Origin: a virus
Taxonomy: Duplodnaviria; Caudoviricetes
Strand: one strand, 5' to 3'
Virus record (IMG/VR): IMGVR_UViG_3300049141_000142
Span: 1 to 24,938 of that record
DNA length: 24,938 nucleotides
A program made the translations under genes and the position numbers. Below, piece by piece: positions 250-18,465 of this stretch. The notes below the pieces were generated by a model. It was not told where the DNA came from, did no database searches, and worked only from the letters and a program-made list of their open reading frames with translations. The number at the start of each line of letters is the position of its first letter. Position 1 is the first letter of the stretch.

Positions 250-258
250 GGCGCCTCT

Positions 259-579
259 TCAACGGTGCGGAACGGATCCGCGCATCAGGGAGAGCGTGAC
301 CTGATCGCGGCCAAGAACGATATCGGCCCGACGCCCGTTCGGTGGCCTGTACAATCGTTGCAGGTGACCGCGCGCGAGAATCTCGGGAAGGCGTTCCCGC
401 ACCCAGACGTCACCGTCCACGCCGTCGACGGCGCTTCGTTTCGCGGCGATGTGCCGTAGTCCGAAGCCACCCCGGAAAATGCGGTTGCCATTGCCGGCGG
501 TCCCGAGGAGGAAACTGATGTCGCCCACATCCTCGCGGTACATCGCGCTGGGCAGGTTCTGCTGCGTGTCACTCATCAT
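259..579 (-). CDS. PBECR-like (phage Barnase/EndoU/colicin E5/RelE fold) nuclease domain, probably truncated
   Basis: AMYREDVGDISFLLG...GGFGLRHIAAKR resembles the AFYR.DIGDIDLVWG...GYGLAHI motif I recall from phage polyvalent-protein nuclease domains; GGAG upstream of the ATG; ends early at ...SLMRGSVPHR. Confidence 0.5.
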   Translation of the reverse strand: MMSDTQQNLPSAMYREDVGDISFLLGTAGNGNRIFRGGFGLRHIAAKRSAVDGVDGDVWVRERLPEILARGHLQRLYRPPNGRRADIVLGRDQVTLSLMRGSVPHR

Positions 580-672
580 TCAGAAGCTCCCTGCGCTGCC
601 GGCCATCAGAATTGCTGGGCGTCGTTTCCTGCCACGCAGCAGCGCCGTCGCTCCGGCCGGGGCTGCTGCGCA

Positions 673-1170
673 TTACGCCTCATCGAGCAACCCGCGCCGG
701 CCGCGCCGGATCGCGGCCGCGCCCGGCACCGCCGTGCGCAGATACGGGTTGCCTGGTATCGGCTGGCGCATCGGCAGCGCGCCGGCCTGCGGCCGGTGGC
801 CCGGCGGGGCGGCGCCGGTCGCGATGGGCGCCGGCTGTCCTCTCCCACGGGCCTGGGCGCCTACCAAGCCGTGGGCCGCGCGCAGCAGCGCCGCCACATC
901 GACGCGCTGTCCATCCTTGAAGCCGCCCCCGGACAGGCCGAGCCGCGTCATGAGGTCGCGCGCATCCGGCGTGACCGCGGCGTCGGGCTTGCCGAGCCCG
1001 TCGATGCCCTCGGCCGGGATCGGCGTACCGGCCGCCATCTTCGCGAGATCGGTACCCGCCGTGCCGGCCGCGCCCGTCGCGGGGGCCGCGGTTGCCGCGG
1101 CATGGGCCGCGTTGCCCCATTGATCGACCAGCATCTTCAGCCACTCGGGGTCGAATCCCATTCCGCTCAT
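673..1170 (-). CDS. hypothetical virion-associated protein, 165 aa
   Basis: ATG at 1170 overlaps the upstream stop (TGATG); Ala/Gly/Pro-rich; C-terminus RRGRRGLLDEA. Confidence 0.7.
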   Translation of the reverse strand: MSGMGFDPEWLKMLVDQWGNAAHAAATAAPATGAAGTAGTDLAKMAAGTPIPAEGIDGLGKPDAAVTPDARDLMTRLGLSGGGFKDGQRVDVAALLRAAHGLVGAQARGRGQPAPIATGAAPPGHRPQAGALPMRQPIPGNPYLRTAVPGAAAIRRGRRGLLDEA

Positions 1171-2159
1171 CACGCGCTTAGCCCCCCGTAGAGGCCGCCG
1201 GCGACGGCACCGATCGCGGTGCCCCACGGTCCGAACATCGATCCCATCGACGCGCCGCTCGCCGCGCCGCCGAGCGCCCCCATCGCCGGGCTGGTGCCGC
1301 CGGTTGTCGGCATGGTGCTCACCGTCGTCCCGCCATAGGGCGTGCCGCCGAGTGCGGCGAGCCGCGTCTGCAACTGCTGCATCGGGTAGTTCCACTGCTC
1401 CAGGAAGCGCGCGTAGTTCTGGTCGAGATTGGCCTGGTCGAGCTGCTGCTGCTGCCCGCCGATACCCTCCAGCGCCGCGATGTCCGTGTAGTTCGCCTGC
1501 TGCGCGTTCTGCCCGAGCTGCCCGGCGAGGCCGAGCGCCTGCAGGTTCAGCCCGGCGCCCTGCAGCCCGGCGCTTTGGTTCGCCATCGCCGCCTGCAAGC
1601 CGCGCGTCAGATCCTGCTGTGCCATCGCCTGGGCATTGGTAAAGGCGCCGCTGCGGAGCTGGGCGGAGAGCTCGCCCGCCTTCTGCGCCGCCGTCGCGTC
1701 CACGACGCCCGCCTGCAGCGCCTGGCGGCTGCCGCCGAAGGCGCGCGCCGAGACTGCGCGATCGGCCAGGCTGTTCTGCGCCGCCTGGCGCTGCTGCTCC
1801 AGCCCGTTCAGCGCGCCGGTTTCGACCGCGCTCAGATAAGGGTTCATGTAGGCGCCGAGATCGGTGCCCGGCAGCGTGCCGGCCGTGACCTGTTGCGGCT
1901 GATAGCCGGCGAGGCCCTGGGCGCCGACGGCGAGGCCTTGCAGGAAGTTGCCGGTCTGCCCCTGCATGCCGCGCACGCCCTGCTGCGCCGCGAGCTGGTC
2001 CGGTGAGAAGCCGGCGATGCGCGGCCCGTCATATTGCTGCAGCGGCCGGTCCGCGACTTCCTTCGAGAAGTCGAGCGTGTCCTGCGCATAGGCATCGAGC
2101 CATGGCGGCAACCGCTGCTCGGTGGTCTGCGTCGTGTTCTTCGGTGCGGATCCGCCCAT
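1170..2159 (-). CDS. putative DNA pilot / ejection (internal virion) protein
   Basis: Gln/Ala/Gly-rich, motifs LPPWL..Y, AYMNPY, AFGGSR, and a Gly-zipper C-terminus (GPWGTAIGAVAGGL); lies downstream of the nozzle and GNAT-like genes as in podoviruses. Confidence 0.75.
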   Translation of the reverse strand: MGGSAPKNTTQTTEQRLPPWLDAYAQDTLDFSKEVADRPLQQYDGPRIAGFSPDQLAAQQGVRGMQGQTGNFLQGLAVGAQGLAGYQPQQVTAGTLPGTDLGAYMNPYLSAVETGALNGLEQQRQAAQNSLADRAVSARAFGGSRQALQAGVVDATAAQKAGELSAQLRSGAFTNAQAMAQQDLTRGLQAAMANQSAGLQGAGLNLQALGLAGQLGQNAQQANYTDIAALEGIGGQQQQLDQANLDQNYARFLEQWNYPMQQLQTRLAALGGTPYGGTTVSTMPTTGGTSPAMGALGGAASGASMGSMFGPWGTAIGAVAGGLYGGLSA

Positions 2160-2160
2160 C

Positions 2161-2520
2161 TCAAAGCTCCTTCACATACAGCGTGGCGCGCGGCGCGTAG
2201 CCGTGCCGGCGCGCGAGTCGCGCCCAACCCTTGCGGCCCAAGGCCTCGGCGCGCAGCGCACCGCGATCGCGGGCCCAGCCCTCGATGGCGGGCAGCAGGG
2301 CGCAGCCTTCGTGGATGTTGCCCGCCGCCAGCCAGTGGCGCAGCGCGAGGCCGCGCGGGTAGCGCAGCATCTCCGTCACCGCGACCGTGTCGCCCTGCTG
2401 CCAGAACTGCGCGCGGCCTGCGCGGATCGCGGCCACCACATCGGCGAGCGTCGTCATGCCGCCATCCTCGGCGACCGCGCGCTCGAGCTTCGCGAGCAGG
2501 CGGGCTTCGCCCTCCGTCAT
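2161..2520 (-). CDS. phage GNAT-fold-like protein, 119 aa
   Basis: ATG at 2520 coupled (ATGA) to the upstream stop; IEGWAR..G......GRKGW.R motif and YVKEL end, typical of small proteins between nozzle and pilot genes. Confidence 0.75.
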   Translation of the reverse strand: MTEGEARLLAKLERAVAEDGGMTTLADVVAAIRAGRAQFWQQGDTVAVTEMLRYPRGLALRHWLAAGNIHEGCALLPAIEGWARDRGALRAEALGRKGWARLARRHGYAPRATLYVKEL

Positions 2521-2723
2521 CCCTGGATCTTCTCGGCCGAGAGCGCGCCGGCATTGCTGACGGTGACGCGCCAGACGCTGCGGTCCGGCGCCTGCAGCAG
2601 GATCGCGGGCGCGGCTTCCTGCGTGGAGTGCAGGGCCAGGAAGCCGCGGCGCAGCGCGTCGAAGGCCTGGCGCAGCGCCACCGCATGCGGGCCGGCGCCG
2701 GGATCGGGCAGGTCGAGCCTCAT
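2517..2723 (-). CDS. small phage tail-associated protein, 68 aa
   Basis: ATGA-coupled on both sides; C-terminal ILLQAPDRSVWRVTVSNAGALSA beta-rich motif seen in small post-nozzle phage proteins. Confidence 0.75.
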   Translation of the reverse strand: MRLDLPDPGAGPHAVALRQAFDALRRGFLALHSTQEAAPAILLQAPDRSVWRVTVSNAGALSAEKIQG

Positions 2724-4234
2724 CGCCCCGCCCCCGGCTGCGCGTCAAGCCGGAGCTCGCCGAGGCTCCAGTCGCCGTCCTGCGCTGCCTCGATGCGCAG
2801 CCGGATGTCGCGGCCGGAGAAACGGCAATCGGTCCAGCCATCCGCACCGGGCATGAAGGGGCCCTCGACGTATTCGGGGCCGTCGCCGGCCTCCTTGGTG
2901 AAGGCCAGCATGCGCGTCGCCGCGAAGCCATGGCCGCTGTCGAACTGCGCTTGAGAGACCTCGATGCGCTGGTCGCCGCCGCCGATCGCGATATTCGCGG
3001 TCTCCGCCCAGACTTCGCCGACCCGGGTCAGCCCGGCGGCGGTCCAGCCCTTCTCATGCTCGAAGATATGGCCGTCGCTGCCGGCCATCACCGGATAGGG
3101 AGCGACGCTCGCCGCCAGCATGGCGCTGCGCGGCAGCGCGCCGACCGACCACCAGTTCTCCTGCCAGTTCCAGATCACGTAGCGGTCGCATTCGGTCTGG
3201 CCCTGGGACGGGTAGAAGAACCAGGCTTCGGGGAAGAGGCCGTTCACCGCGGCATGCACGCGCGACTGGCCCGCGAAGGCGTCGATGCCGGCGAAGAGAA
3301 AATGGGCGACGTCGCAAGGCAGCGGCCGCACCGCGCCGCCATCGAAGACCCAGAAGGTCTGCCGGCCCATCCAGATCACCGTGCTGCTGCTGCTCGCGAA
3401 GCTGTAAGGGCTGAACAGGCTGCAGGCTTCGCCGATGCGCTCGAAGGCATAGACGAAGGGCTGGCCGATATAGCGTGCCAGCCAGACATCGCTGTCCGTG
3501 AAGATCAGCACGCCGCCGCGCACGCGCACCGCATTGACGATGAAGCCGGAGATGGAGAGGTCGAAGAAGCCCGCGCTGTTGCCGGGATTGGCGAAATCCC
3601 AGTCGTTGATGTCCTCGCGCGAGCACCAGGCGACGCGATAGGGCACGCCGCCGGCGCCGAACAGCATCACATGCCGCTCCTCGGTGACCAGCATGGCGAT
3701 GCTGTGCTGCGGCGCATCGGCAACCGGGGCTGCTTTCGCCGGCAGCGGCAGCACCGTGGTGTCCCAGAGCAGCAGGCGCCCGTCGCTGCCGCAGAGTGCC
3801 AGCAGGTTAGCGCCGAAATTGTCGAGGCTCCAGATCACCGGCCGCCCGAACAGCCGCCCATCGGCCAGCGGCCGCGGCGTGCCATAGGCATCGGCATTGT
3901 AGGGGCCGATGCCATAGCCGCTCTCGGTCGCGAGCGGCGGCGTCGGCTCGAAATCGGCGGGCGTGATGTCGGTGACCGTGCCGCCTTCGAGGATCTGCAG
4001 CTTGCTGTCGCTGCCGAGCGCGATGCGGAAGATGTCCTGCAGGTCGCGCCAGGCCGAGAGGCGGCGAACGGGTTCCGCGAGCGGTGCCGCGGTGTTGCGC
4101 TGCCAGCCGCCGACCGGCAGCAGATGGTCGCCGCGCCAGCGGATGAGGTTCGCATCCCAGTAGCGGTTCCGCGCGCGGGACGGCGTCGCGGCCTTCACCA
4201 CACCCGGGGGCAGTTTGATCGGCTGCATCGCCAT
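2720..4234 (-). CDS. tail nozzle / tail tubular B-like (beta-propeller) protein, 504 aa
   Basis: GGAGG then ATG at 4234; N-terminus PIKLPPGVVK..T......RYWDANLIRWR, then GYG.GPY...AYGTPR, WSLDNFG, VAWCSRED..DW; aromatic beta-rich repeats. Confidence 0.8.
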   Translation of the reverse strand: MAMQPIKLPPGVVKAATPSRARNRYWDANLIRWRGDHLLPVGGWQRNTAAPLAEPVRRLSAWRDLQDIFRIALGSDSKLQILEGGTVTDITPADFEPTPPLATESGYGIGPYNADAYGTPRPLADGRLFGRPVIWSLDNFGANLLALCGSDGRLLLWDTTVLPLPAKAAPVADAPQHSIAMLVTEERHVMLFGAGGVPYRVAWCSREDINDWDFANPGNSAGFFDLSISGFIVNAVRVRGGVLIFTDSDVWLARYIGQPFVYAFERIGEACSLFSPYSFASSSSTVIWMGRQTFWVFDGGAVRPLPCDVAHFLFAGIDAFAGQSRVHAAVNGLFPEAWFFYPSQGQTECDRYVIWNWQENWWSVGALPRSAMLAASVAPYPVMAGSDGHIFEHEKGWTAAGLTRVGEVWAETANIAIGGGDQRIEVSQAQFDSGHGFAATRMLAFTKEAGDGPEYVEGPFMPGADGWTDCRFSGRDIRLRIEAAQDGDWSLGELRLDAQPGAGR

Positions 4235-4253
4235 CGCGGCACCTCCGCCATCC

Positions 4254-4282
4254 CTGTCCAGTGGACGGGGGTGTGATGCAAG
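4254..4282 (-). promoter_or_regulatory. repeated 29-bp bipartite motif, copy upstream of nozzle
   Basis: Minus strand CTTGCATC-ACACCCCCGTC-CACTGGACAG, 19 nt before the ATG at 4234. Confidence 0.75.
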
Positions 4283-4287
4283 GGTTG

Positions 4288-4411
4288 ATGCACGGGAATG
4301 ATGGACCTGGTGAAGCAGGGCTATTTCCCGGCTGGCTGCCGGATCCTCTATGCCCATCTCGGCGGCGCGCCGGCGCTGAACGGCTACGCCTACGCCTTCC
4401 GCAACGGCCGA
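4288..4411 (+). pseudogene. acdS: 3'-terminal relic of ACC deaminase
   Basis: MHG(+1 shift)[37 protein letters not shown] matches the AcdS C-terminus (MHGMI..V..G.FP.GS.VLYAHLGG.PALN.Y...FRNG*); the expected stop reads CGA at 4409-4411; no 5' part is present. Confidence 0.85.
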
Positions 4412-4425
4412 AGCCATTGATCGGC

Positions 4426-4455
4426 GCCGCGCGGCGAGGCTGATCGCCGCGCGGC
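4426..4455. terminator. GC-rich hairpin between convergent acdS relic and spanin gene
   Basis: 12-bp perfect stem GCCGCGCGGCGA / TCGCCGCGCGGC with 6-nt loop; no clear U-tract. Confidence 0.55.
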
Positions 4456-4460
4456 ATCCG

Positions 4461-4652
4461 TTACCATCCGCAGAGCCGGCGCCCGGTCTCGTTGTGCGCC
4501 AGGATGTCGGCGGCCGTGCCGCGCGTCAGCGCGTCTTGCCGGCTGACCAGGATCGGCCGCCACGGCCCGCAGGCGTCAATCCCGCGACCAGTCCCGGCGC
4601 AGCCGCTCAGCAGGGTCAGGCTCGCGAGCCACAGCACGCTCCACCGTATCAC
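4461..4652 (-). CDS. o-spanin (Rz1-like lipoprotein), 63 aa
   Basis: GGAGG then GTG at 4652; signal peptide with lipobox LSGC; further Cys residues; overlaps the i-spanin 3' end in another frame. Confidence 0.85.
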   Translation of the reverse strand: MIRWSVLWLASLTLLSGCAGTGRGIDACGPWRPILVSRQDALTRGTAADILAHNETGRRLCGW

Positions 4653-4830
4653 GGGTCCTCCGGTTTTCGATGTCGCGCCCGAGGGCGCGGTTGCCCGCCT
4701 GCAGGCGTTCCTGCTGTCGACCGCTGAGGAAGGCATAGCCGAGCGCCGCAACCGCCACGCCGACGGCGAGGAGGATGCGGCCGGCCTTGGTCCCGGCGAA
4801 CCAGCTCCAGGCCGCGAGGAGCGCACTCAT
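4576..4830 (-). CDS. i-spanin (Rz-like), 84 aa
   Basis: ATGA-coupled to the endolysin; N-terminal TM helix followed by a charged helical segment ending LRRDWSRD. Confidence 0.8.
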   Translation of the reverse strand: MSALLAAWSWFAGTKAGRILLAVGVAVAALGYAFLSGRQQERLQAGNRALGRDIENRRTRDTVERAVAREPDPAERLRRDWSRD

Positions 4831-5489
4831 GCCAAGGCTGCGCGGCGGCTCAGGATCACCGCGACCGCAACCGCGGCGGCGGCCAGCGCGATCGCCGCCA
4901 CCGCCTGCCAGGGCAGCCCGACCAGCGCCGCCAGGCCCGGGCCGGCCGCGCCGATCGCGCCGCCGATCGTCAGTGGCGTCGCGTTGGCTGCGACCGGCCC
5001 GGCCGGCGGCGCGGCCTCGACCGTGTTGCCCGCGACGTAGTCGCCGCGCACCCAGAGCCCGGCCTCGGCCGCGCGGCGGTTGACCAGGCCGGCGACGCGG
5101 CGGCCGCCGGCGCGGTTCCACTTCGCGAGCTCGGCCGGCACCGCTGCATAGTCGCCCGCGTTCAGCTTGCGCAGCAGGGTGGAGGTCGTGAAGGCGCGCT
5201 CCCCGACATTGAAGGCGAAGCTAACCAGCGCGCCGAACTGGTTGTCATTGAGCGGCACGATCACCGCCTCATCGACAGCAACTTCGAAACGCGCGAGGTC
5301 CTGGCGCAGCAGGCGCTCGGCTTCCGCCTCCGTGATGCGCTGCGCGATGCGCACGTCGCCAGTGTGGCCATAGCCGATGGTCCAGACCCCGGCGACATCC
5401 TGATAGGCGGAGAGCCGCAGGCCCTCCCACTGCTTGATCAGCGCGAGCGTCGCGCCGTTCACCCTGCGGGTGCCTGCGTCCAGCGTCAT
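4827..5489 (-). CDS. endolysin, GH24 phage lysozyme with hydrophobic C-terminal extension
   Basis: WEGLRLSAYQDVAGVWTIGYGHT (E-x8-D-x5-T triad), QFGALVSFAFNVG, STLLRKLNAG, GLVNRRAAE; C-terminal ~45 aa hydrophobic. Confidence 0.95.
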   Translation of the reverse strand: MTLDAGTRRVNGATLALIKQWEGLRLSAYQDVAGVWTIGYGHTGDVRIAQRITEAEAERLLRQDLARFEVAVDEAVIVPLNDNQFGALVSFAFNVGERAFTTSTLLRKLNAGDYAAVPAELAKWNRAGGRRVAGLVNRRAAEAGLWVRGDYVAGNTVEAAPPAGPVAANATPLTIGGAIGAAGPGLAALVGLPWQAVAAIALAAAAVAVAVILSRRAALA

Positions 5490-5707
5490 GCGTCGCTTTC
5501 TCCTTCCGGTGCCGCGAGCCAGATCGCGGCGGTCGAGAGGATCCCGACCGCGGTGATCGGCGATATGCCCTCGGTCGTCGCGACCTCGACCTGGCCGTCG
5601 TCATTGATCCAGGCGAGGCAGGCGAGGCGGGTCCCCGCCTCGCTCAGCCGCTCGGCCATCGCGACGAGCGGGTTCTGCGCCATGGGCGGCTTGCGTGGGC
5701 GGGTCAT
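5486..5707 (-). CDS. hypothetical protein, 73 aa
   Basis: GGAG then ATG at 5707; stop overlaps the endolysin start (ATGA). Confidence 0.7.
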   Translation of the reverse strand: MTRPRKPPMAQNPLVAMAERLSEAGTRLACLAWINDDGQVEVATTEGISPITAVGILSTAAIWLAAPEGESDA

Positions 5708-5720
5708 CGCGGCGTCTCCA

Positions 5721-5930
5721 TCAGCGCAGCCGCGCGAACCAGGCGAGCGCCGCGCCGATCGCGGCCGCCGTCGCGACCAGCAGCCCGACGACGCGCCAGC
5801 CGCCACGCACCTCGTTCAGCAGCCGCGTCAGCGCGGTGACCGACGCCTTGAGGTCGGCCATCTCCTCGCGGAGGTGCTGCACCTCCGCTTCCAGCGCGCC
5901 GAAGGCGCGGGCGTCGACGGGTGGGGTCAT
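5721..5930 (-). CDS. holin-like / coiled-coil + single TM phage membrane protein
   Basis: GGAG RBS; FGALEAEV coiled coil, GGWR, then a TM helix; lies upstream of the endolysin. Confidence 0.75.
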   Translation of the reverse strand: MTPPVDARAFGALEAEVQHLREEMADLKASVTALTRLLNEVRGGWRVVGLLVATAAAIGAALAWFARLR

Positions 5931-5981
5931 GCGGATGGCTCCGTTTGCGATGTGCGGGGAGGACAGCCGGGCGCGGCCAGG

Positions 5982-7115
5982 TCAGAGCGCGGCCTCCAAC
6001 GCCGCGATGCGGGCGGCCTGGGCCTGGACGATCGCGTGCAGGTCCTTGACCGCGTTGACGAGCGCCCAGGGGAGGGGACCGGCATCGAGGCGCAGCGCGT
6101 CCTCCAGGTCGATTTCGCCGAGAATTTCCCGACTGGCCGTGACGGTCTCGGGCATCGCCCGAAGCATGTCCTGCGCGATCCCGCCGATGTAGCGCCGGGT
6201 CGGATCGCGCCCGGTCGCGGCGCGGTAGCTATAGACCTTCGGGGTGATCCGCAGGATGGCGGAGAGGCCGGTGGTATAGGGCTCGATGCGTTCCTTGAAG
6301 CGCTCGTCTGAGATATCGGACCAGGGACCGCCGCCGGCCTTGTAAGCGCCACCGTCGTTGCGGAAGTCGAAGGCGGTCGCGCCGATGCCGATGCGCATCG
6401 CCGTATAGACGCCTGTGGCGTGGATCGTCTGGAGATTGATGGCGCTCCCCCAGCCGGGATCGCCTTGCACCAGGATCTGGTTCCAGACATTGCCTGGGTT
6501 GGTGATGTAGTCGCTGGTACTGAGCACCAGGCCGATGCCCTGGCTGGCGTAGAGCGCCTTACCGTGGGAGCTCCAGTTGATGCCCGCGGAGGCGCTGATG
6601 CTTCCGATCACGGAAAGGCCATTGCCGGCCGTCAGCGCGCCGCCAATGGTCACGGCGCCGTTTGCCCGATTGATCCCAAGCGCTGTGACGTCGCCGGCGC
6701 CGCTGTCGTTGAGGCGCGTGATGACGAAATCGCTGCCGGCGTTGCTGCCGGTTTCGGCCGCGGTATTGGCGCCGATATACCAGCGCCGGGACGTGCCGGT
6801 GCGGAAGCTGGCCAGGCGCCAGCGGCCGGCAGCGCCGTCGATATAGAGATTGGAATCGGCGGCGCCCGTCGTTGCAACGCGGAAGCTGGCGCCTGTCCCG
6901 CTCGCCGGTGCCAGGGTCAGCGCGCCCGTCATCGTATCGCCGGCCTTGGAGACGCGACCATTGGCATTGGCGTTCGCCGCCGCGGCATTGTCGAGCGCTG
7001 CCTTGACCTGGGTGTCCAGGATATCGGCATTGCCGTTCAGCATCGGCGCCCAGGCGTCGTCATCGCCGTTCGGGTCGGGCTTGGTCAGTCCCAGGTTCGG
7101 GGTCGTCGTGGCCAT
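5982..7115 (-). CDS. tail fibre with C-terminal intramolecular chaperone (Peptidase_S74-like), 377 aa
   Basis: GGAGG then ATG at 7115; TPNLGLTKP anchor, KAGDTMTG, ETGSNAGSDF..R..D.G; SDERFKERI...G.IAQD...PETV autocleavage chaperone and terminal coiled coil. Confidence 0.9.
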   Translation of the reverse strand: MATTTPNLGLTKPDPNGDDDAWAPMLNGNADILDTQVKAALDNAAAANANANGRVSKAGDTMTGALTLAPASGTGASFRVATTGAADSNLYIDGAAGRWRLASFRTGTSRRWYIGANTAAETGSNAGSDFVITRLNDSGAGDVTALGINRANGAVTIGGALTAGNGLSVIGSISASAGINWSSHGKALYASQGIGLVLSTSDYITNPGNVWNQILVQGDPGWGSAINLQTIHATGVYTAMRIGIGATAFDFRNDGGAYKAGGGPWSDISDERFKERIEPYTTGLSAILRITPKVYSYRAATGRDPTRRYIGGIAQDMLRAMPETVTASREILGEIDLEDALRLDAGPLPWALVNAVKDLHAIVQAQAARIAALEAAL

Positions 7116-7135
7116 TCCGGGTACCTCCACGATCC

Positions 7136-7164
7136 CTGTCCAGAGGACGAGGATAGGAGGCAAG
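7136..7164 (-). promoter_or_regulatory. repeated 29-bp bipartite motif, copy upstream of S74 fibre
   Basis: Minus strand CTTGCCTC-CTATCCTCGTC-CTCTGGACAG, 20 nt before the ATG at 7115. Confidence 0.75.
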
Positions 7165-7204
7165 CGGAAATGATTGGGTGAGGCGGGTGACGGGCCGGCG
7201 GCGG

Positions 7205-8188: not shown

Positions 8189-8221
8189 CTGGCGATGGGC
8201 TTCACCAGCCGCCCAGAAGCG

Positions 8222-8938: not shown

Positions 8939-8940
8939 CG

Positions 8941-10874: not shown

Positions 10875-10899
10875 GGCGGAGGGCGTAGCGCCCTCCGCC
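10875..10899 (-). terminator. hairpin after major capsid gene (putative attenuating terminator)
   Basis: 11-bp perfect stem GGCGGAGGGCG / CGCCCTCCGCC, 3-nt loop, 8 nt after the capsid stop, followed by ACCCTTT on the minus strand. Confidence 0.7.
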
Positions 10900-10907
10900 C
10901 TGTCGCC

Positions 10908-11870
10908 TCACGGCTCGTCGGCCGCCGACGGCGCGATGTCGGCAATCTTGAAATGCGCCGCCTCGTTCGAGACCTCGAGCCCGTACTCCGCGACCAGCAT
11001 CCGGGTCTCGGCATCGCCGACCTTCGCGATCTCCTCGGTCTTCAGCCGCCGGTAATAGGCGACCTTTGCGTATTCCGGATCGATGCCGAGCACGGTGCGC
11101 GGGCGCTGCCAGCGCGACGGTACCGCCTTCAGCTCGCCGAAATCGGAGAGGTAGAAATCCGCCGCGGCGACGATCTCGTCCGCGTCGATCTTCACGCGGC
11201 TGTTGGCGCGCCCCGCGAAGCCGGAGAACTTCCGCTTCGCGTAAGGGCCCATCATCAGCAGCGTCGGTTCGCCGCCATTCTCATAGGTCTCCTGGATGGC
11301 GTCCGCCAGCAGCGCCTCGGTGAAGGCGCGCAGCGTGCCATCGGTGACCGCGGCGGTCTCGCTCACTGGGTTCGCGCCGCCCGCGCCATAGGACGCGTTG
11401 GTCGTGATCCAGTGCTCGAAGGCTCGGGTCGCGCGTGCGGTAGGCGTGGTGTCGTCGCCATTCGCCCGCGCCTGCTCGCCGACCAGGATGCTCTCCATGT
11501 CGCGCAGCAGCGCCTTCCCGTTCAGCGCGATCTGATGCGCCATCTCGCCCCGCTTGCCGGCGGCGTCCGCACTCTCCTGCGAGCCGGAGACCGTCGCGTC
11601 GCGGGTCGAGATCTGACAGACATTGGACCGCCGTACCGTCGGCTGCGCGACGGAACGCGACAGCTCGAACCCTTCCTCCTTGCGGTTCGCCTTGTTCACG
11701 GCCGGCAGGTTCTCGGTCTGCCAGTCGAACTGGACGTTGGTGGCATTGCGGGTGCCGATCGCCGTCATGAAGGGACGGTCGCTCGGGTCGATGTTGTAGA
11801 TTGCGTTCGCCAGGTCCTCGCGGTTGCCCTTGGCGCCATAGGTGGTGAATGCGTTCGTGACCTTGGCCAT
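10908..11870 (-). CDS. major capsid protein (DUF5309 / SU10-MCP-like)
   Basis: GNREDL..AIYNIDP.D.PF, FDWQTE.L, N.CQI......VSGSQ, Y.SDFG, AKVGDAE..MLVAEYGLEV.NEAAH; strong AAGGAG RBS. Confidence 0.92.
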   Translation of the reverse strand: MAKVTNAFTTYGAKGNREDLANAIYNIDPSDRPFMTAIGTRNATNVQFDWQTENLPAVNKANRKEEGFELSRSVAQPTVRRSNVCQISTRDATVSGSQESADAAGKRGEMAHQIALNGKALLRDMESILVGEQARANGDDTTPTARATRAFEHWITTNASYGAGGANPVSETAAVTDGTLRAFTEALLADAIQETYENGGEPTLLMMGPYAKRKFSGFAGRANSRVKIDADEIVAAADFYLSDFGELKAVPSRWQRPRTVLGIDPEYAKVAYYRRLKTEEIAKVGDAETRMLVAEYGLEVSNEAAHFKIADIAPSAADEP

Positions 11871-11886
11871 GGCCGGGTTCTCTCCT

Positions 11887-12921
11887 TCAGAGGAGTTTTT
11901 CGATCACCGCCTGCGCGTCGCGCAGGCTGTTGGACTTCGCCAGACGCTGCTTGGCGCGCACGAGGTCGGCGCCCTGCCGCGGTCCGGGATGCTGCGCACC
12001 CGGCCGCGGGGAGGGCGATGCCGGCCTCGGCGGCTGCGGAGACAGACGCTTCTGCATGGCCTCGTCGTATTTCATCGCCTTGTAGAGGACGACGACCGCG
12101 CGATGATCGATGACGGAGGAGAGCTCCTCCTCCGACCAGCCGAGCCCGAGGCCATACTCCCGCACCTTGATCCGGTCGGTGTTGCGGCGCTCCCTGTCGC
12201 GCCAGGCGGGCATCGCCTGCACGAGCAGATCGCTTTCATGATGGAGCTTCGCGCGCATCTCGTCTTCGGTCGCGATCGCTTCCGCCGCGCGGACGCGCTC
12301 ATACTCCTGCCGCGCGGCGTCCATGCGGGACTGGCTCTCGCGCCATTCCTCGCGCTTCAGCATGTAGCCGACCGGGTCTTCCTCCTTCAGGCGCGCCCAA
12401 TCCGGCTCCGGACCCTGCATCTGCTGGATCTGGAAGGCGAGAGCCGGGAGGAGCTGCGCGTATTGAAGGCGCTCCTGCCGCACCGCGGACGCTTCGCCGT
12501 CGAGACCCCTGCGGTCTTCGGCGAGCGCCTGCGTCTTGCGCGTGTAGTCGGCCTGGCGGAGATAGCCGCGGGTCACCTCCGCCAGCGGAAGCCGCTGCGA
12601 CTTGCCGTCGATCTCGACGGTGACGAGCGTCTTCGCGGGGTCGGGCTCCGCGGCGTCTTCATCCGCCTCGGCCGGGGGATCCTCGGGCTCGATCTCGACC
12701 TCGGGCTCCAGCTCGGAGCCTTCGGCATCGACCGGCGTCTCGCCGTCGGATCCGGGATGCTGCGCCTCGGCTGCGTCAGCCTTGGCCTGCGGCATGCGGG
12801 CCGCCGCGGCACCTGGTTCCCCGCTGTCGCGGGCCAGGAGTTCGGCGATGCTGGATGCCGCGGTTTCCACGTCGGTGCCCTGGGGCGTGTCGGACGTGGC
12901 GATGGTGATCTCGGACGCCAT
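11887..12921 (-). CDS. capsid scaffolding protein, 344 aa
   Basis: AGGAG then ATG at 12921; acidic N-terminus, VTVEIDGK....L.E...GYLRQADYTRKTQALAE, coiled coil, DHRAVVVLYKAMKYD; immediately upstream of the capsid gene. Confidence 0.88.
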   Translation of the reverse strand: MASEITIATSDTPQGTDVETAASSIAELLARDSGEPGAAAARMPQAKADAAEAQHPGSDGETPVDAEGSELEPEVEIEPEDPPAEADEDAAEPDPAKTLVTVEIDGKSQRLPLAEVTRGYLRQADYTRKTQALAEDRRGLDGEASAVRQERLQYAQLLPALAFQIQQMQGPEPDWARLKEEDPVGYMLKREEWRESQSRMDAARQEYERVRAAEAIATEDEMRAKLHHESDLLVQAMPAWRDRERRNTDRIKVREYGLGLGWSEEELSSVIDHRAVVVLYKAMKYDEAMQKRLSPQPPRPASPSPRPGAQHPGPRQGADLVRAKQRLAKSNSLRDAQAVIEKLL

Positions 12922-12922
12922 G

Positions 12923-13213
12923 TCAGCTCCTGCTCTTGCGTTGCAGTTCGAAGCGGAGGTTGCGCTTCGTGATGGCCGCACCCGCGGCGGCCGCCGCGAG
13001 ATCCGCGCGCAGCGCATCGAGGGCGCGCAGCATCAGGAAGGCGGCCTCCCGCTCTTCGCGCCCATGCGCGGGATCGGAGTGGCGGATCTGTGCCAGGCAA
13101 TGCGCTTCGACATTGGCGAAGGCGCGCTGCAGGCCGGGATGCTCGATCGCCGCGCGTGCCTGGCGCGCGGCGGCATCGGCTTCGGTGATGATGGTGTCGG
13201 GGCTGCGTGCCAT
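12923..13213 (-). CDS. small conserved head-module protein, 96 aa
   Basis: GGAG then ATG at 13213; helical, EEREAAFLMLRALDALRADL; typical position between portal and scaffold. Confidence 0.8.
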   Translation of the reverse strand: MARSPDTIITEADAAARQARAAIEHPGLQRAFANVEAHCLAQIRHSDPAHGREEREAAFLMLRALDALRADLAAAAAGAAITKRNLRFELQRKSRS

Positions 13214-13233
13214 CGCTGTCTCCACCTCAGCGC

Positions 13234-13262
13234 CTATCCAGAGCAGGGGGGAGGGATGCAAG
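13234..13262 (-). promoter_or_regulatory. repeated 29-bp bipartite motif, copy upstream of scaffold/capsid operon
   Basis: Minus strand CTTGCATC-CCTCCCCCCTG-CTCTGGATAG, 20 nt before the ATG at 13213. Confidence 0.8.
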
Positions 13263-13933
13263 CGGGAAGTGCGGAGAAGGAGATCGACGGCGCTGATCGC
13301 CGCGGATTGCGCAGGATCGGGAGGGTTGTTCGCCGCGGCCGCCGACAGGCCGGCGGCACGATGGCAACAGCCGTCATGCCTTACCGGTTACCCTCCGGCC
13401 GTCGACTGTTGGTTACGCCTGGTACTGCGCTTCTCGGAACGCACGCCTCGCCACGTTGAGCGTCGGATCGCTTCCCGCGGCAGCGCGGTGAAAGTCGGGC
13501 GGAAGCCGGGGGATCGCTCCAGACCATGCCCATGATGCGAGGGCCGCGGTACATGTGTGAAATATGGCCGCGCTTGATCCAACGGCGGCTACGGTAGAAC
13601 TGCGGCAAGCGCCGCCGCCGAGGCCTGCTCGCGGATTGCCGCTGGTCTCAGCAGTATCGTGCCGGCCTGCGCCAAGGATACCTGGTCTCGTACCGAAGCT
13701 GCTTCCGACGCCAGATCCCCGTGGGCCGCCGGACTACCGGCGGTCCTTACCGCGGAACAGCGCGATGTCGCCCCGGTTGACCCGGCGCGGTTGGCGGAGA
13801 AGCTGCGCCATGTTTTGCCAGCGCATCCGCTCCCACATAGCCGGGTGCGGTTCCATGCGCGTGGGGCGATAGGGAATCACGGTCCGAGTATGCCAGACGC
13901 ACACCCTTCCCCAGAGCGGGAAGGGCCTCCAGG

Positions 13934-14134
13934 TCAAGGCGCTTCGTCGGATGGAAGGCTGCCATCGAGCCGGCCGGGGACCGCGCCGTAGCGCGGCATC
14001 AGGAACGCCCGCCGTCGTCCGGCGGCGGATCGGAGAGACACGCGAATATTCTCGATCGGATCGGGATGCGCGAGCAGCCCGCGCGGCACCGGCGGCACGC
14101 GGTCGGTGGGGTATTCCGGATCGCGCGAGCGCAT
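13934..14134 (-). CDS. short hypothetical protein or gene remnant, 66 aa
   Basis: TGATG-coupled to the upstream gene; contains PRGLL and MPRYGAV, the latter duplicated from the upstream gene. Confidence 0.4.
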   Translation of the reverse strand: MRSRDPEYPTDRVPPVPRGLLAHPDPIENIRVSLRSAAGRRRAFLMPRYGAVPGRLDGSLPSDEAP

Positions 14135-14207
14135 CAACGCATTCTGCCCAGCAGGGCGTTGAAGTCAGGACTTCCGGCGAGCCCCACCGCGCCGTAGCGC
14201 GGCATCA
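13980..14207. repeat. 22-bp exact direct repeat ACCGCGCCGTAGCGCGGCATCA
   Basis: Copies at 13980-14001 and 14186-14207; a 12-bp core GCCGTAGCGCGG occurs again at 14248-14259. Confidence 0.85.
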
Positions 14208-14970
14208 CGCCGACCTGCTGCAGCCGCGCCAGCGTCGCGGGCTGCATGCCGTAGCGCGGTGGTGCGTAGCTCGGCAGGCCGAGATTGGGTACTGGTGGCA
14301 GGCCACCGCCGTTCGCGGGCGGGTTGCCCGGCGCCGGCGCCGCCGGCAGCGGTTGCAGCGCACCGATGGCCGGCGGCGCAGCCGGGAAGGCACCGTAGTT
14401 GTAGGCCGCGACCGGCGCCTGCGGCGCGCCTGGCATGGCGCCGCCGGCGACAAAGTTGCGCGGCGCCTGGTCGATCGGCGCGGTCAGCGCGCTGCGCCAC
14501 GCATCGCGCTGCGCGGCGCGCGGGTCCGGCCCCTGGGGCAGCAGCGAGCCGAGATAGTTGGCGAGGCCGTAGCCACCATGATCGCCATTGCCACCATTGC
14601 CGTCGCTGGTGCCATCCGGGCCGCTGCTGTTGCTGTGCCCGTCGGCGGCACTGCTGTTGCCATGGCCATCGGCCGCACCGCTGTCGCCGTGACCATCGGC
14701 GGCGCCGGCACCGGAGCCATCGGCGCCGTCCGCGCCTGCTCCATCGCCCGCCCCATCGCCGCCGTCACCGCTGTTGTCGAAGGCCGGCAGGCCGGCCGGG
14801 CCGCGCAATGGCCGGCCGTCGCGCGTCAGCCCGCCGCCGCGCGCGCGCAGCAGCGCCGCCTCCTGCGCGGTGATGTAGGCCAGGTGATGCGGCGTGCCGC
14901 GCACGGAGGTGCGCCGCGGCGCGGTCACCTGGCCGGAGGGCTCGGCATCGAGAAGGCCACGGCGCTTCAT
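14134..14970 (-). CDS. putative internal virion protein, 278 aa
   Basis: GGAG RBS, ATGA coupling; HHLAYITAQEAALLRARGGG...GPAGLPAF motif that I recognise from phage low-complexity internal proteins; Gly/Asp/Ser repeats then a Pro/Ala-rich tail. Confidence 0.75.
   Translation of the reverse strand: MKRRGLLDAEPSGQVTAPRRTSVRGTPHHLAYITAQEAALLRARGGGLTRDGRPLRGPAGLPAFDNSGDGGDGAGDGAGADGADGSGAGAADGHGDSGAADGHGNSSAADGHSNSSGPDGTSDGNGGNGDHGGYGLANYLGSLLPQGPDPRAAQRDAWRSALTAPIDQAPRNFVAGGAMPGAPQAPVAAYNYGAFPAAPPAIGALQPLPAAPAPGNPPANGGGLPPVPNLGLPSYAPPRYGMQPATLARLQQVGVMPRYGAVGLAGSPDFNALLGRMR
14593..14700 (-). repeat. 27-bp (9-aa) coding tandem repeat
   Basis: ADGHGDSGA / ADGHGNSSA / ADGHSNSSG / PDGTSDGNG. Confidence 0.7.
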
Positions 14971-16055
14971 TGCGCTTCTCCCTCCCCTGCACCCAGCAGT
15001 CCCCCACCAGCGCCCATCATCAGACCGGCCGCTCCCTGCAATTGGAAATAGCGGGACAGGAATTCGTCCGTGTTGATGAGGGAGCGGAAGTACGCCGCGG
15101 CTCTCGGGGCCCGCGTCCATATCAGCTCCGGATTGCGCAGATAGGTTCCAAGCCCCTCAGCAAACAGCTCATTGCGTTCAGCTTGAGAGCCAACTCGTTC
15201 GCCGCCAGCGGAGAGGACCCGCCCCAGTTCGGTCACCACGTGTCGCGGCATTTGGGCGTCGCCCGTCAGCCCGGAATGCACGCCATGGCCGACTTCGTGC
15301 ATTTCTGTCTGGCCGCCGCGTGGATTGCCTTCGCGAATGCGCGCCGAGGCCATACGCGCCGTCGCTTCGCCGCGCCCCTGCGCCCAGGCGCCGCGCAGCG
15401 AGTAAACGCTCTCTATCCTGCCGTTACGGATGCGTGGAAATTCGGGGCCGGGGACATCGCGCGCAACGCCCCGCTGCGCCAGGTAGTCTAGAAGATACTC
15501 ACGAGCCTCTGATGGAAGCGGTGAAAAACTCCCCTCTGAAGTACGCCCCGCCCGCCACGGCGCCGTGAGATGTCGCCCTTCGGGGTCCACCGCGGGGAAC
15601 GCAGATGCATTGGAACCATTCGGCGGGCCAGGCGGTCGAGGAGGGGCGGGCGGGGAATCGCCCCGATCGGGAGGTATCGAGCCATTGGTCATATTATACC
15701 GGACTGCCCCCGCATTTGCACGCGCGATCGGCCGAATGCGGCCGGCAAAACCCAGCGCGAACATGGCCTCATCAAGCCGCCGCTGAGCCACGCCCGGGTG
15801 GACATATTCGGGCTCACCAGGGAACCCGGCCAGCGGGTTCCGCACCGGCTCGCCAGGCCGCATGTCCGGCGACGGCAGCGTCAGCGACGGCCCCTGACGC
15901 TGCGGCCGCAGCAGCCCGGCTCTCTCTGAACTGGCCTGATAGGCGGCCAGCATATCATCCAAGTCGGACGGCAGCAGCGAAGGGCGCCGTGCCACGATGT
16001 AGGCACGTGCCTCGTCGCCGGGATCAGGCTCGCCGCCACCCAGAAGTCCGGTCAT
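14967..16055 (-). CDS. putative virion-borne zinc metallopeptidase (HExxH, MPTase/anthrax-LF-like)
   Basis: EMHEVGHGVH plus downstream NELFAEGLGTYLRNPE.....AP.AA.YF; Pro-rich N-terminal half; ATGA-coupled to the portal; more A/T-ending codons. Confidence 0.75.
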   Translation of the reverse strand: MTGLLGGGEPDPGDEARAYIVARRPSLLPSDLDDMLAAYQASSERAGLLRPQRQGPSLTLPSPDMRPGEPVRNPLAGFPGEPEYVHPGVAQRRLDEAMFALGFAGRIRPIARANAGAVRYNMTNGSIPPDRGDSPPAPPRPPGPPNGSNASAFPAVDPEGRHLTAPWRAGRTSEGSFSPLPSEAREYLLDYLAQRGVARDVPGPEFPRIRNGRIESVYSLRGAWAQGRGEATARMASARIREGNPRGGQTEMHEVGHGVHSGLTGDAQMPRHVVTELGRVLSAGGERVGSQAERNELFAEGLGTYLRNPELIWTRAPRAAAYFRSLINTDEFLSRYFQLQGAAGLMMGAGGGLLGAGEGEAQ

Positions 16056-18397
16056 TGCATGGTCTCCTCGGCCGGCGCGGCGACTGCTGGCTGCGCCTGC
16101 ATGGCATTCCGGTCGCGATCGACCAGCGCCCGGATCGCCGCAACATCCACCTGGGCGCCGTATTTGAGCTGCATCTCGTAGGCCCGAAGCGTGATGTCGG
16201 CATCCAGACGGTCGCGTTCGCGATCGTCGGCCTGCTGCGCCTTCCAGGCTTCGAGACGTTGGGATTCCAGCTTCACCTGGGCATCGAGGCGGTTGGTGGC
16301 GATCTTCGCCTCGGCCTCCATGCGGCCGTTCTGGATCTGCGCCTGCGCCAGCGCCGCGCCGGGGTCGGGCGCCGCGCCCTGGCCGCGCGCCTGCTGCGCC
16401 TTCGCGCGGAAGGCCATGTCGTCGGCCGCACCCGGATCGAGGAAGAAGCGGTTCGCATCCTTGTAGCCGCCGAGGCGCACGATCTCCGCCAAGGTTGCGC
16501 GGAACTGGCGGATGGTGACCAGCGGGTTGTCCGGCCCGATCGTCGTCAGGATCTGCTGCTGCTGTTGCAGCACCATCATCAGGAAGGCCATGCGCTGGCT
16601 ATCCGGGCCGCGGCCGAGCGCGACATTGACCGAGACATCCATCTCCGCATCCCAGACGCGCGGATCGACCTCCGACCATTGGCCGCGCAGGCGCACCATG
16701 CGCGGCCGGTCCTGATGCCGCACCAGCATCCGCAGCACGCCGCGGAACACCTGCTTGACCAGCGTCTCCGCCAATGTGCGCGCGATCATCTCGACGCGCT
16801 CCTGCGACGCCTCGATGGTGTTCTGCACCGCGACCTTGGTTGCCGATTGCAGCGCCTCGGGGTCGAGGCCGCGGCTCGCCCGCGTGATACCGGTGCGCTG
16901 CGCCTTCACCTCGTCGACATAGGCCAGCACGCCCATCGCTTCGGCGCCCACGAAGGGTTGCGCCAGCGCCTGCACCATGCCCGGCGCCTTCATGCGGATG
17001 ATCGCGCCGCGCTCGTTGTTCGCGACGTCGTCGAGGTTCACCGCGCCCTCGACCACGCCGAGCTTCGGGTCCAGCGCCTCCGCCAGGCTGTCCATGACCG
17101 AGCGCAGGATGCCGGTCTTCAGGTCCTGCAGATCGAGCGTCTGGTCGGCGATCGAGCTGCCGATGACGCGGTGCGGCTGGCGCACGGGGGAGCCGAGCGC
17201 CATCGGCACCTCCGGCACCACCTCATCGCTCAGCACCAGGTCGCAATCAGCGCCCACGGTGCAGACGCGGTGCAGCTCCGCGACGCCGTCGCCATCCGCG
17301 TCGTAGCGGATGAAATGCTCGACATGCAGCACCCGCCAGGCGCTGCGGTCGATCGAGGGCAGATCGAAGGGCAGCGCCCGCGCCGGGTCGCGCTGCGTCG
17401 CCTCATCGTTCAGAGCGAAATCCGCCTCGGCGGTGGCATGCCGGGCGAGCGTCTCGACATCGCCGGCGCCGCGCGCGACGAGGTCGGAGATCCGTTCCAG
17501 GCTGCGATGCGCGCAATAGCTCGCGCCGTCGATGTCGCGGGCGTCGCGGGCGATGACGAATTCCTCGGGCGGCACCGCCATCAGCCGCAGCACGCCGCGC
17601 CGCGTGGTGCGCCGGACATGCAGGTCGATGCTGATCGCCGGCGAGGGCACCAGGCCCGGCATCAGCGGCGCCGGCGCCTCCGGCAGGATCAGCGTCTCGC
17701 GCCGCTCCAGCACCTCGATGGCGGGATCGGCGAGCAGCCGCGCCTCGGTCAGCGGGTCGAGGCCGGTATAGTCCAGCGCCTCGACCCGCACCGCCTCGTC
17801 CCACCACCATTTCACGATGCCGGTCTTCTTCAGCAGCGCGTCATGCACCGCGTCATGCAGCGTCGCGAACCAGGAATTGCCGTCAGCATTGATGCAGTAG
17901 CCGACATAGTCGGTCATCTGCTCCGCCATGGCCTCATCCTCCGGGCCATGCGGGATGAATTCGACGACGCGCTCGCCGGAGGTGAAGATGCGGATCAGCC
18001 CCGGCAGCATCTGGTGCACGATATCAGCGACCTCGCGCGCCACCACCGCGCTGCGGCCCGCGAGGTCCTCGAGCTGCTCCGGCCGGTCCTGCCGGTCATA
18101 GATCAGCCCGTCGTAATAGTCCTGCGCGCGCTGCCGCTCCGGCGCCTGGTGGCTGTCGATCGCATCCGCCGCATCCGCGTAGCTCATGCGCACCAGCGCG
18201 CGGATATCCTCGACCGAGAGCGGCTCGGCCGCCGCCGCCGCCGGCGGCGCCTCGGCCGGCGCCATCGGCGGCTCGCCATCCCCGGCCGCGAGGATCGCCG
18301 CCGCCGCCGCGTCGAGCGCGGCGCGCATGCCGCCGAGGGGCTTCGGCGGCAGCGCCGCCGCGATGTCGCCGATCCTGCTGCGCTGCTGTGCTGCCAC
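16052..18397 (-). CDS. portal protein (podovirus, P22/SU10-like)
   Basis: R..A.DYY.G, GRSAVV..EV.D.V....P.LIRIFTSGERVVEF.P.GPEDE..AEQ.TDYV, DALLKKTGIVK.WW, VPPEEF; Gln-rich C-terminal barrel; GTG start after GGGAG. Confidence 0.92.
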   Translation of the reverse strand: MAAQQRSRIGDIAAALPPKPLGGMRAALDAAAAAILAAGDGEPPMAPAEAPPAAAAAEPLSVEDIRALVRMSYADAADAIDSHQAPERQRAQDYYDGLIYDRQDRPEQLEDLAGRSAVVAREVADIVHQMLPGLIRIFTSGERVVEFIPHGPEDEAMAEQMTDYVGYCINADGNSWFATLHDAVHDALLKKTGIVKWWWDEAVRVEALDYTGLDPLTEARLLADPAIEVLERRETLILPEAPAPLMPGLVPSPAISIDLHVRRTTRRGVLRLMAVPPEEFVIARDARDIDGASYCAHRSLERISDLVARGAGDVETLARHATAEADFALNDEATQRDPARALPFDLPSIDRSAWRVLHVEHFIRYDADGDGVAELHRVCTVGADCDLVLSDEVVPEVPMALGSPVRQPHRVIGSSIADQTLDLQDLKTGILRSVMDSLAEALDPKLGVVEGAVNLDDVANNERGAIIRMKAPGMVQALAQPFVGAEAMGVLAYVDEVKAQRTGITRASRGLDPEALQSATKVAVQNTIEASQERVEMIARTLAETLVKQVFRGVLRMLVRHQDRPRMVRLRGQWSEVDPRVWDAEMDVSVNVALGRGPDSQRMAFLMMVLQQQQQILTTIGPDNPLVTIRQFRATLAEIVRLGGYKDANRFFLDPGAADDMAFRAKAQQARGQGAAPDPGAALAQAQIQNGRMEAEAKIATNRLDAQVKLESQRLEAWKAQQADDRERDRLDADITLRAYEMQLKYGAQVDVAAIRALVDRDRNAMQAQPAVAAPAEETMQ

Positions 18398-18436
18398 GCG
18401 ATGATGTCTCCCGCACCGATCCGGCTCTGATGGCGG

Positions 18437-18465
18437 CTATCCAGAGCGGGGCAGGTCGATGCAAG
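18437..18465 (-). promoter_or_regulatory. repeated 29-bp bipartite motif, copy upstream of portal
   Basis: Minus strand CTTGCATC-GACCTGCCCCG-CTCTGGATAG, 39 nt before the GTG at 18397. Confidence 0.8.

Follow-up and report, generated by a model that had tools for sequence, protein, structure and literature searches.

A split, host-inherited element derived from a podovirus in Plastoroseomonas, a likely gene transfer agent

Results and Discussion

The window analyzed here, a virus record of 24,938 bp (IMGVR_UViG_3300049141_000142) that was the only source DNA and was read from base 1, contains the main structural locus of a temperate podovirus of the phiM5/MJing1 type, without the integrase, replication genes, terminase and two large ejection genes. 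We propose that, in a soil bacterium, this locus belongs to a young, split, host-inherited, podovirus-derived element that is likely a gene transfer agent (GTA), and place the probability of this reading at about 0.55. Domestication, taken by itself, is very probable, and we lean toward DNA transfer as the function under selection. The case proved stronger than the sequence alone had suggested: the podovirus remnant is split, apparently co-regulated and under selection, it is confined to a narrow clade of Plastoroseomonas, and it is most likely a new GTA variant.

An orphan terminase in genomes that carry the cluster

A sequence-only reading of the window had described the cluster as terminase-less and host-maintained, either served by a terminase encoded elsewhere or forming a DNA-free particle. 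Profile and family searches agreed with it, finding in the window no gene for a terminase, an integrase, a repressor, replication or a large ejection protein; the word terminase-less, however, holds for the window only, as a whole-genome search located one intact orphan terS-terL pair in each of the two cluster-carrying genomes. In Plastoroseomonas hellenica LMG 31523 (G003), the closest isolate, the MJing1 TerL used as query found an intact TerL of 480 amino acids (aa) with an overlapping TerS, between a response regulator gene and nhaA. The pair is well inside a contig of 231 kb, with 86 kb on one side and 145 kb on the other; this contig is distinct from those of the cluster, and no other MJing1-gene match was found within 50 kb of the pair. 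The second carrier genome, G253, has an 88% TerL ortholog among host genes at a different site, and an 89% ortholog on a 483-kb metagenome contig (L149) lies between nhaA and hydantoinase genes, arranged as in G003. The terS-terL pair is the sole PF03237 match in both G003 and G253, and the other four genomes of the genus have none.

Two further observations bring the terminase closer to the window and its relatives. Run X1 contains all sampled words of window positions 1-10000 and may be the source of the window; in it, a 3,411-bp contig covers terL, terS and nhaA at ~92% nucleotide identity to G003. Moreover, the TerL of L149 and the pilot protein of the IMG/VR provirus G001 are each identical to database proteins listing the same 1,277,505-bp contig, which suggests that they belong to one organism.

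The orphan TerL keeps what we take to be its Walker A and B motifs and the acidic residues of its nuclease. At 43% identity to the P22 TerL, it would be expected to package by the headful mechanism. No viral contig contained a TerL of more than 67% identity. Alanine plus glycine make up 0.23-0.24 of the orphan TerL vs 0.19-0.20 in three phages, the structural genes being equal in this respect, and a search for the carbon-cost bias typical of the Rhodobacter capsulatus GTA (RcGTA) gave no clear signal. Related observations include, in G003, the broken remains of a terL of this family, inverted in part (L078-L080, G003:C8), a PIN-domain toxin-antitoxin-like pair near the orphan terS-terL of both G003 and G253 (L083:5001-6103 and L128:6318-8083), the DNA of which cannot be aligned, and TerL genes of lower identity (45-57%) in two genomes of the family that gave no SU10 portal match (L096-L098, L129, L131; G241, G087).

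A promoter-like motif shared by the scattered loci

Alignment of upstream regions revealed a motif, TKGMMH-N11-GCWCTGGAYAG, ahead of terS (in three lineages), the portal gene and the scaffold operon. The window has four copies, ahead of the portal gene, the scaffold operon, fiber 2 and the nozzle gene, vs 0.21 expected by chance. In G003, 12 matches were found at no more than one mismatch, vs 4 for a reversed control. A stricter pattern occurs eight times in G003, once in G253 and twice in the other 399 family genomes (control, 10), so the motif does not act as a housekeeping promoter in general. A weight matrix derived from nine of the sites recovered the three internal cluster positions in all four reduced clusters (described later), and at a threshold of at least 14 bits found no site in the pieces of the phage-like cluster B, in MJing1 or in eight other phage loci; matches of only 14-15 bits came from phiM5, L234 and L146. 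When viral contigs were scanned, two matches fell in G001, and two within coding regions of unrelated phages were taken as chance.

Seven G003 matches lie outside the cluster and terS. Three precede cargo genes of the GLL type (below), one of which is open at 750 aa and 52% identical to a cargo protein of record G002; one precedes a tailspike-like and one a hydrolase-like gene; the remaining two carry TTGACC and resemble ordinary promoters. The hydrolase-like gene is predicted to be secreted and follows a perfect motif by 248 bp (L271 / L288:5434, G003:C2), with no Rfam match between them. On contig C4 of G003, paralogous genes of 366 and 373 aa, which are possibly immunity-like, stand after a motif-driven GLL gene (L289:5736-8081); the one tested belongs to no PHROG family. 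The tailspike-like gene is one of two in a separate element on contig C52 (L146-L148), which also has an integrase, DUF927, a DUF5681 small-terminase-like gene and two ejection-like genes, and is possibly a satellite or prophage remnant.

The layout of the motif is sigma-70-like, with a -35 element TTGCAT, a 17-bp spacer that includes a conserved CTCTG, and a poor -10 element. The antiterminator GafZ of the Caulobacter GTA (CcGTA) is described as binding between -35 and -10 (PMC11150451). No CtrA-like boxes were found at the cluster or terS promoters, and a generic scan for sigma-70 promoters and terminators stayed at chance level.

Orthologous clusters, descent and selection

Three orthologous reduced clusters were found, in G003, in G001 and in G253 (cluster A, also present as record G002), making four with the window. 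The clusters of the window and G003 are 91% identical (portal, 84%; capsid, 98%), and the cluster stands beside the same patatin-like gene in both, the junction having 87% nucleotide identity. Since the insertion site is common to both, their divergence arose in the chromosome.

All ratios of nonsynonymous to synonymous substitution rates (dN/dS) are NG86 estimates, and nine genes were concatenated for cluster comparisons. Between the window and G003, dN/dS is 0.216 at a synonymous divergence (dS) of 0.234, and 0 stop codons were found vs ~66 expected in 3,694 neutral codons; among the four reduced clusters the ratio is 0.22-0.30. Over four lineages, at dS 0.23-0.51, every frame of the head, tail and terminase has stayed open. 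The capsid gene is the most conserved (0.058 between the window and G003, 0.06-0.14 overall); the nozzle gave 0.107, TerL 0.18-0.26 and the portal 0.33; host references gave 0.07 for gyrB, 0.18-0.19 for hydantoinase, 0.33 for nhaA and 0.41 for the patatin-like gene. Fiber 1 is much more diverged (dS 0.83-1.28), a pattern that suggests exchange.

In the capsid tree, the four reduced clusters form one clade (99/93) with cluster B of G253 as a weakly supported sister, and the orphan TerLs form one clade (100/100) among MJing1-like TerLs. The gyrB comparison pairs G003 with G253 as sisters (96% aa) and separates both from the four other genomes of the genus. Synonymous divergence between these two hosts is 0.44 for cluster A, 0.40 for TerL, 0.30 for gyrB and 0.61 for cluster B; cluster, TerL and gyrB values are thus comparable, two carrier hosts being few for a judgment of congruence. 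A related capsid occurs in 6/301 relatives and a close one only in G003 and G253, and a two-pattern scan of genome contigs returned one locus, which says little on range. Together, the orphan terminase, the shared motif, purifying selection and a clade nested among MJing1-like phages support well the proposal of a host-maintained cluster whose terminase is encoded elsewhere; retention of that terminase weakens the DNA-free alternative.

The flanks of the clusters differ. In G003, LysR and dehydrogenase genes directly follow the post-pilot gene, and a gene for a PALP enzyme with an Lrp gene is inserted between spanin and nozzle; in cluster A of G253, Fic and feoB directly follow the post-pilot gene. 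G001 begins exactly at the portal start codon, and its post-pilot gene is followed by a frameshifted GLL-PBECR gene, of which window positions 259-579 are a truncated remnant. A second patatin-like gene lies inside the G003 cluster, between the cargo genes and the scaffold operon (L069:4113-6608). Cluster B is the phage-like sister, with capsid, nozzle and pilot 80-86% identical (capsid, 86%). After its pilot gene come a gene for an ejection protein of 777 aa, a cell-wall hydrolase, and a further large gene, and both ends of the cluster are contig ends. Its lysin is a different one, and a frameshift interrupts its capsid gene in viral record L231, the genome copy L087 being open (L142/L087/L231). 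No second portal or capsid was found in G003. The G003 homolog of the 777-aa protein was considered as an orphan ejection locus and rejected, as it sits in the integrase and DUF927 element on C52. Searches with the last ejection gene of cluster B and with MJing1 gp50 yielded nothing new; since gp50 missed cluster B too, this search was insensitive.

Organization of the window

The core head, tail and lysis genes occupy the minus strand, to which all positions below refer unless stated, and open frames with family matches confirm the portal, scaffold, capsid, adaptor, gp80, two fibers, lysozyme, two spanins, hub/nozzle and pilot that had been called from the sequence. The earlier impression that everything is intact holds for these core frames and fails for the PBECR open reading frame (259-579) and for frameshifted cargo remnants (13262-14133). 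Full translational coupling was likewise overstated: only 13/23 junctions overlap or have a gap of at most 2 bp, and the cluster is divided into four sub-operons, each with a motif ahead of it. No tRNA was found in the window, and Rfam gave 0 matches there or in the L271 region of G003:C2. The terminus of an open reading frame falls exactly on base 1, so the record appears to be cut at a gene boundary.

The first motif (TTGCAT-N11-GCTCTG-GATAG; 18437-18464), found at the same site in G003, precedes the gene for a 781-aa portal of the SU10/PaP3 type (16052-18397; PF23899, E 2e-177; phrog_1216; PDB 9nwm, 7sxk, 7z44). Next come a variable cargo gene with GLL at both ends and an HExxH zincin-like domain (14967-16055), which has paralogs in relatives, and a conserved gene with GLL at its start, encoding a 278-aa and likely head-internal protein, which is present in the four reduced clusters and in cluster B (14134-14970). 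The decayed cargo remnants that follow share blocks of 80-86% nucleotide identity with G003 and are frameshifted in the window.

The second motif (13234-13261), at the same position in G001, G002/G253 and G003, stands ahead of the scaffold-capsid operon. This begins with a small conserved gene (12923-13213), a homolog of the MJing1 gene preceding the scaffold, and continues with the scaffold (11887-12921; phrog_3927), the 320-aa major capsid protein (10908-11870; PF17236, phrog_1328; PDB 9ny2, 7z45), a small gene 69% identical to its MJing1 counterpart (10528-10848; phrog_3982), the head-tail adaptor (9878-10528; PF24175), a GP4 gp80-type fiber/adaptor protein (9447-9878; PF23140), a small tail-region gene kept in relatives (8941-9447) and the fast-evolving, collar-type fiber 1, assigned by domain and family matches (8222-8938). 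A SAM (S-adenosylmethionine) methyltransferase gene (7205-8146; PF08241) is a non-core insertion, and its slot holds other genes in relatives.

Motif scanning placed the third copy (7136-7163) ahead of fiber 2 and the lysis genes. Fiber 2 carries an S74 chaperone (5982-7115; PF13884, phrog_1980); two small genes kept in relatives (5486-5930), of which that at 5721-5930 has a C-terminal hydrophobic segment and may be holin-like, precede the endolysin, a phage lysozyme (4827-5489; PF00959), and the overlapping Rz/Rz1-like spanins (4461-4830; phrog_1026, phrog_1275), the start of the outer one not being fixed. The fourth copy (4254-4281), from the same scan, opens the tail hub/ejection operon. 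It comprises the hub/nozzle (2720-4234; phrog_3287; PDB 9nwi, 8zkk), two small genes (2161-2723), one of which (2161-2520) would by synteny occupy the IVPA/P22 gp14 slot (compare PMC10386132), the pilot (1170-2159; phrog_4287) and a small post-pilot gene with a GLL end (673-1161). The pilot, at 329 aa the smallest ejection protein, is likely a gp7/gp14-like outer-membrane channel; its nearest Pfam cluster is P22_gp7 at 0.90, a lead only, and PDB gave no sequence match. In MJing1 and cluster B two large ejection genes come after the post-pilot position, and they are missing here. The PBECR nuclease-like remnant matches PF18809 under the cut-off and was recognized by alignment to the G001 copy.

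On the plus strand, a host-type gene for a patatin-like membrane protein (18573-21146) flanks the cluster. Its ATG at 18573 is 175 bp from the portal start, as the sequence-only reading had said of a divergent patatin gene; the name itself is less firm, the Pfam match (E 5e-4) being under the cut-off. Beyond it, a glycine-rich autotransporter passenger with PATR repeats runs off the end of the record (21603-24938).

Phage relatives, and cargo with GLL termini

By portal, the closest complete phages are MJing1 (OQ540923; ~49.5-51%) and phiM5 (42%), the latter placed in the LUZ24 lineage (PMC10386132). MJing1 is 71%, 53% and 65% identical in capsid, nozzle and TerL, respectively. Its gene order matches that of the window, TerL standing 1.4 kb ahead of the portal; it also has an integrase, a helicase and a polymerase, and its pilot is followed by two large genes (595 and 671 aa). 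Its GC content is 70.9% (GC3 0.93-0.96). The GC content of the window is host-like, but we rejected this as a sign of domestication, an argument made from the window alone, because this free phage is equally GC-rich. MJing1 was deposited as a Microcystis phage, yet its closest structural relatives in this analysis are in Acetobacteraceae genomes, and the host label may be wrong. Among viral contigs with at least 4 kb available upstream of a related portal, 18/28 have a TerL match within 2 kb of it, as do all six (6/6) with a portal of at least 50% identity.

Across the clusters, the portal-scaffold interval holds 1 to 5 genes, including HExxH and DUF7178-related proteins. A GLL lies no more than 20 residues from a terminus in 18/95 proteins of the query set, five of them from MJing1, and all 18 are cargo or ejection-region proteins; from this distribution, GLL may be a head-loading signal. 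The HExxH cargo protein has only two database homologs, and its zincin-like structural look-alikes are weak (TM 0.6 or less), so the fold is a weak lead.

Comparison with known gene transfer agents

In size and layout, the element resembles the Brachyspira GTA (BhGTA/VSH-1, Brachygtaviriformidae): the cluster is 17.8 kb here vs 16.3 kb for BhGTA, whose genome is described as having its single terL outside the structural/lysis cluster (PMC9662315). BhGTA differs in its long flexible tail, its few viral homologs and its experimentally shown particles; the particles of the element are predicted, from podoviral parts that are 50-70% identical to a free phage. With RcGTA and CcGTA (Rhodogtaviriformidae) it shares a multi-locus arrangement, the lack of replication genes, apparently co-regulated loci and, by analogy, a proposed periplasmic delivery (compare PMC7296036). 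Those GTAs, however, have the terminase in the main cluster, an HK97 portal, a tail tube, a baseplate and GafA/GafYZ, in contrast to the SU10-type portal and capsid found here and to DUF6456 in 0/6 genomes of the genus; the element is not a member of the RcGTA family. The Bartonella GTA (BaGTA, Bartogtaviriformidae) is also alphaproteobacterial; it is reported to have a short tail or none, some of its genes are orphans, and uptake depends on ComEC. Its terL abuts the portal in the account of PMC3610622, unlike the unlinked terL here; further, 10.1101/2024.11.20.624540 gives BaGTA a run-off replication module and the antiterminator BrrG, unlike the element. Podoviruses of the phiM5/MJing1/LUZ24 type (MJing1, Sinorhizobium phage phiM5, Pa223, SU10) have the same gene order, but keep TerL close to the portal (within ~2 kb), have at least two large ejection genes together with an integrase and a polymerase, and lack the motif.

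On the genomic side of the viriform criteria (PMC9662315), the element resembles a GTA: the particle proteins are of caudoviral derivation, and in G003 and G253 the element is endogenised at several loci with no replication module (the MJing1 polA search lacked a positive control); for the window's own genome this holds only via X1. The integrase, repressor, replication genes, linked terminase and full ejection set of an intact temperate prophage were not found. A tailocin (a headless tail) was rejected, as a capsid is present and is the most conserved gene. A literature search found nothing on a GTA in Roseomonas or other Acetobacteraceae or on this element, subscription papers being mostly outside its reach.

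Proposed mechanism

From the gene content, split layout, motif and selection described above, we infer expression, assembly, packaging and delivery as follows, taking the simplest scheme, in which the loci are induced together and DNA reaches the periplasm of kin. An unlinked activator or an altered RNA polymerase would switch the promoters on together in some cells, and the P22-like TerL would load host DNA into the proheads, there being no phage genome in replication for it to prefer. The scattered loci would probably be too far apart to be captured within one head. Endolysin and spanins would lyse the producer, the fibers would bind related cells, and the retained pilot would open the outer membrane. 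Proteins bearing the GLL tag, itself a legacy of the phage, would ride inside the head. For the related phage Pa223, a proposed model assigns the three ejection proteins to an outer-membrane channel (the smallest, 313 aa), a periplasmic tunnel and an inner-membrane complex (bioRxiv 10.1101/2025.06.11.659172); of these the window retains only the first (329 aa). As the tunnel and inner-membrane proteins are gone, we propose that DNA would go no further than the periplasm and be taken up from there by ComEC. This would resemble RcGTA, in which DNA is described as left there for uptake by competence (PMC7296036), and BaGTA, uptake of which is reported to require comEC, dprA and comM (PMC5496983).

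Alternative explanations

Several observations weigh against a selected GTA. Compared with phage-like cluster B, dN/dS is equally 0.26-0.29, and the portal, scaffold and TerS are relaxed (0.32-0.37, against 0.07 for gyrB). The range is narrow: the element occurs in 2/6 genomes of the genus, the other four, some of them incomplete, having no capsid or TerL match, and any such portal in 5/401 family genomes, with close ones again limited to G003 and G253. Cargo and PBECR genes are decaying, and the flanks vary, G253 differing both in its terS-terL site and in the genes after the pilot. No regulator was found; GafA-type DUF6456 occurs in 0/6 genomes of the genus, the Caulobacter control being positive. 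The gene comEC is present in 3/3 genomes tested, one of them without the element, and the link between the window and the X1 terminase contig is a shared run with matching divergence (92% vs 91%), not assembly. Finally, with the queries used here, 10/28 viral contigs have no TerL match upstream of the portal, and in a 43-kb viral contig TerL lies between adaptor and gp80 (L249:12463-13935). The position of TerL is thus labile in this phage group, and a portal without adjacent TerL proves little alone.

That last contig, and the fact that the record is itself a fragment beginning at base 1, would suit an ordinary or rearranged prophage whose terminase and replication genes lie just outside it, which we consider very improbable: in both G003 and G253 the orthologous cluster gives way to host genes past the pilot, the terminase of G003 is far inside its 231-kb contig with no MJing1-gene neighbors within 50 kb, and no viral contig has a close TerL. 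The missing ejection genes, cargo genes reduced to pseudogenes, insertions of host genes into the cluster, a patchy distribution and a dN/dS of 0.2-0.37 for several genes could also mark a cryptic prophage in slow decay, or one kept without a working particle for a partial function such as lysis for extracellular DNA or vesicle release, or superinfection exclusion. We regard this as unlikely, given that head, tail and terminase frames are all open in four lineages (where ~66 stops were expected in one pair), that capsid dN/dS is 0.06-0.14, and that the same motif stands ahead of every interrupted sub-operon and of terS.

Alternatively, the head may mainly carry GLL-tagged polymorphic proteins (zincin-like peptidases, DUF7178-related proteins, a PBECR nuclease) into neighbors, with DNA as filler or ejection force. 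The portal-scaffold interval expanded with paralogs in relatives, the cargo-type genes behind the same motif at three other G003 loci, one of them open at 750 aa, and the restriction of GLL termini to cargo and ejection-region proteins all fit such a device. The tag appears ancestral, however, GLL cargo genes being found also in free phage MJing1 (gp71, gp72); many cargo copies are frameshifted, no immunity pairing has been shown, and the terminase is retained with the same motif, so that protein delivery as the main purpose seems to us rather improbable. There is still less to recommend the loci as a defense triggered by an infecting cluster-B-like phage, whose assembly they would divert into host-DNA-filled or non-infectious particles. 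G253 does have a related cluster with full ejection genes and an 86% capsid, so that parts could be exchangeable, and no regulator was found in the cluster; but scans of cluster B and of other phages did not turn up the motif, and G003 has no second portal or capsid.

Returning to the GTA that we favor, a bolder version is possible, although we hold it only tentatively and doubt it in full: a GTA that arose recently and independently from a phiM5/LUZ24-type podovirus, still in mid-domestication with a phage sister in the same host clade, which has rebuilt a promoter regulon over scattered loci, shed its tunnel and inner-membrane ejection proteins in favor of host competence, and doubles as a protein-delivery device, its GLL tag allowing products of genes at any chromosomal site to enter the head.

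Significance

The transition from phage to GTA has been hard to study, since the recognized GTAs are ancient and distant from the viruses that gave rise to them. For the element described here, capsid, nozzle and pilot are 80-86% identical to those of a phage-like sister cluster, identity to a sequenced phage is 50-70%, and a culture-collection strain, LMG 31523, is available as a carrier. The motif offers a direct handle on the regulator. Should GLL prove to direct head loading, the choice of internal proteins by these podoviruses would be accounted for. The changes that separate the element from its phage relatives, namely the unlinked terminase, the loss of the large ejection genes, the new shared motif and the dispersed cargo, are each open to testing.

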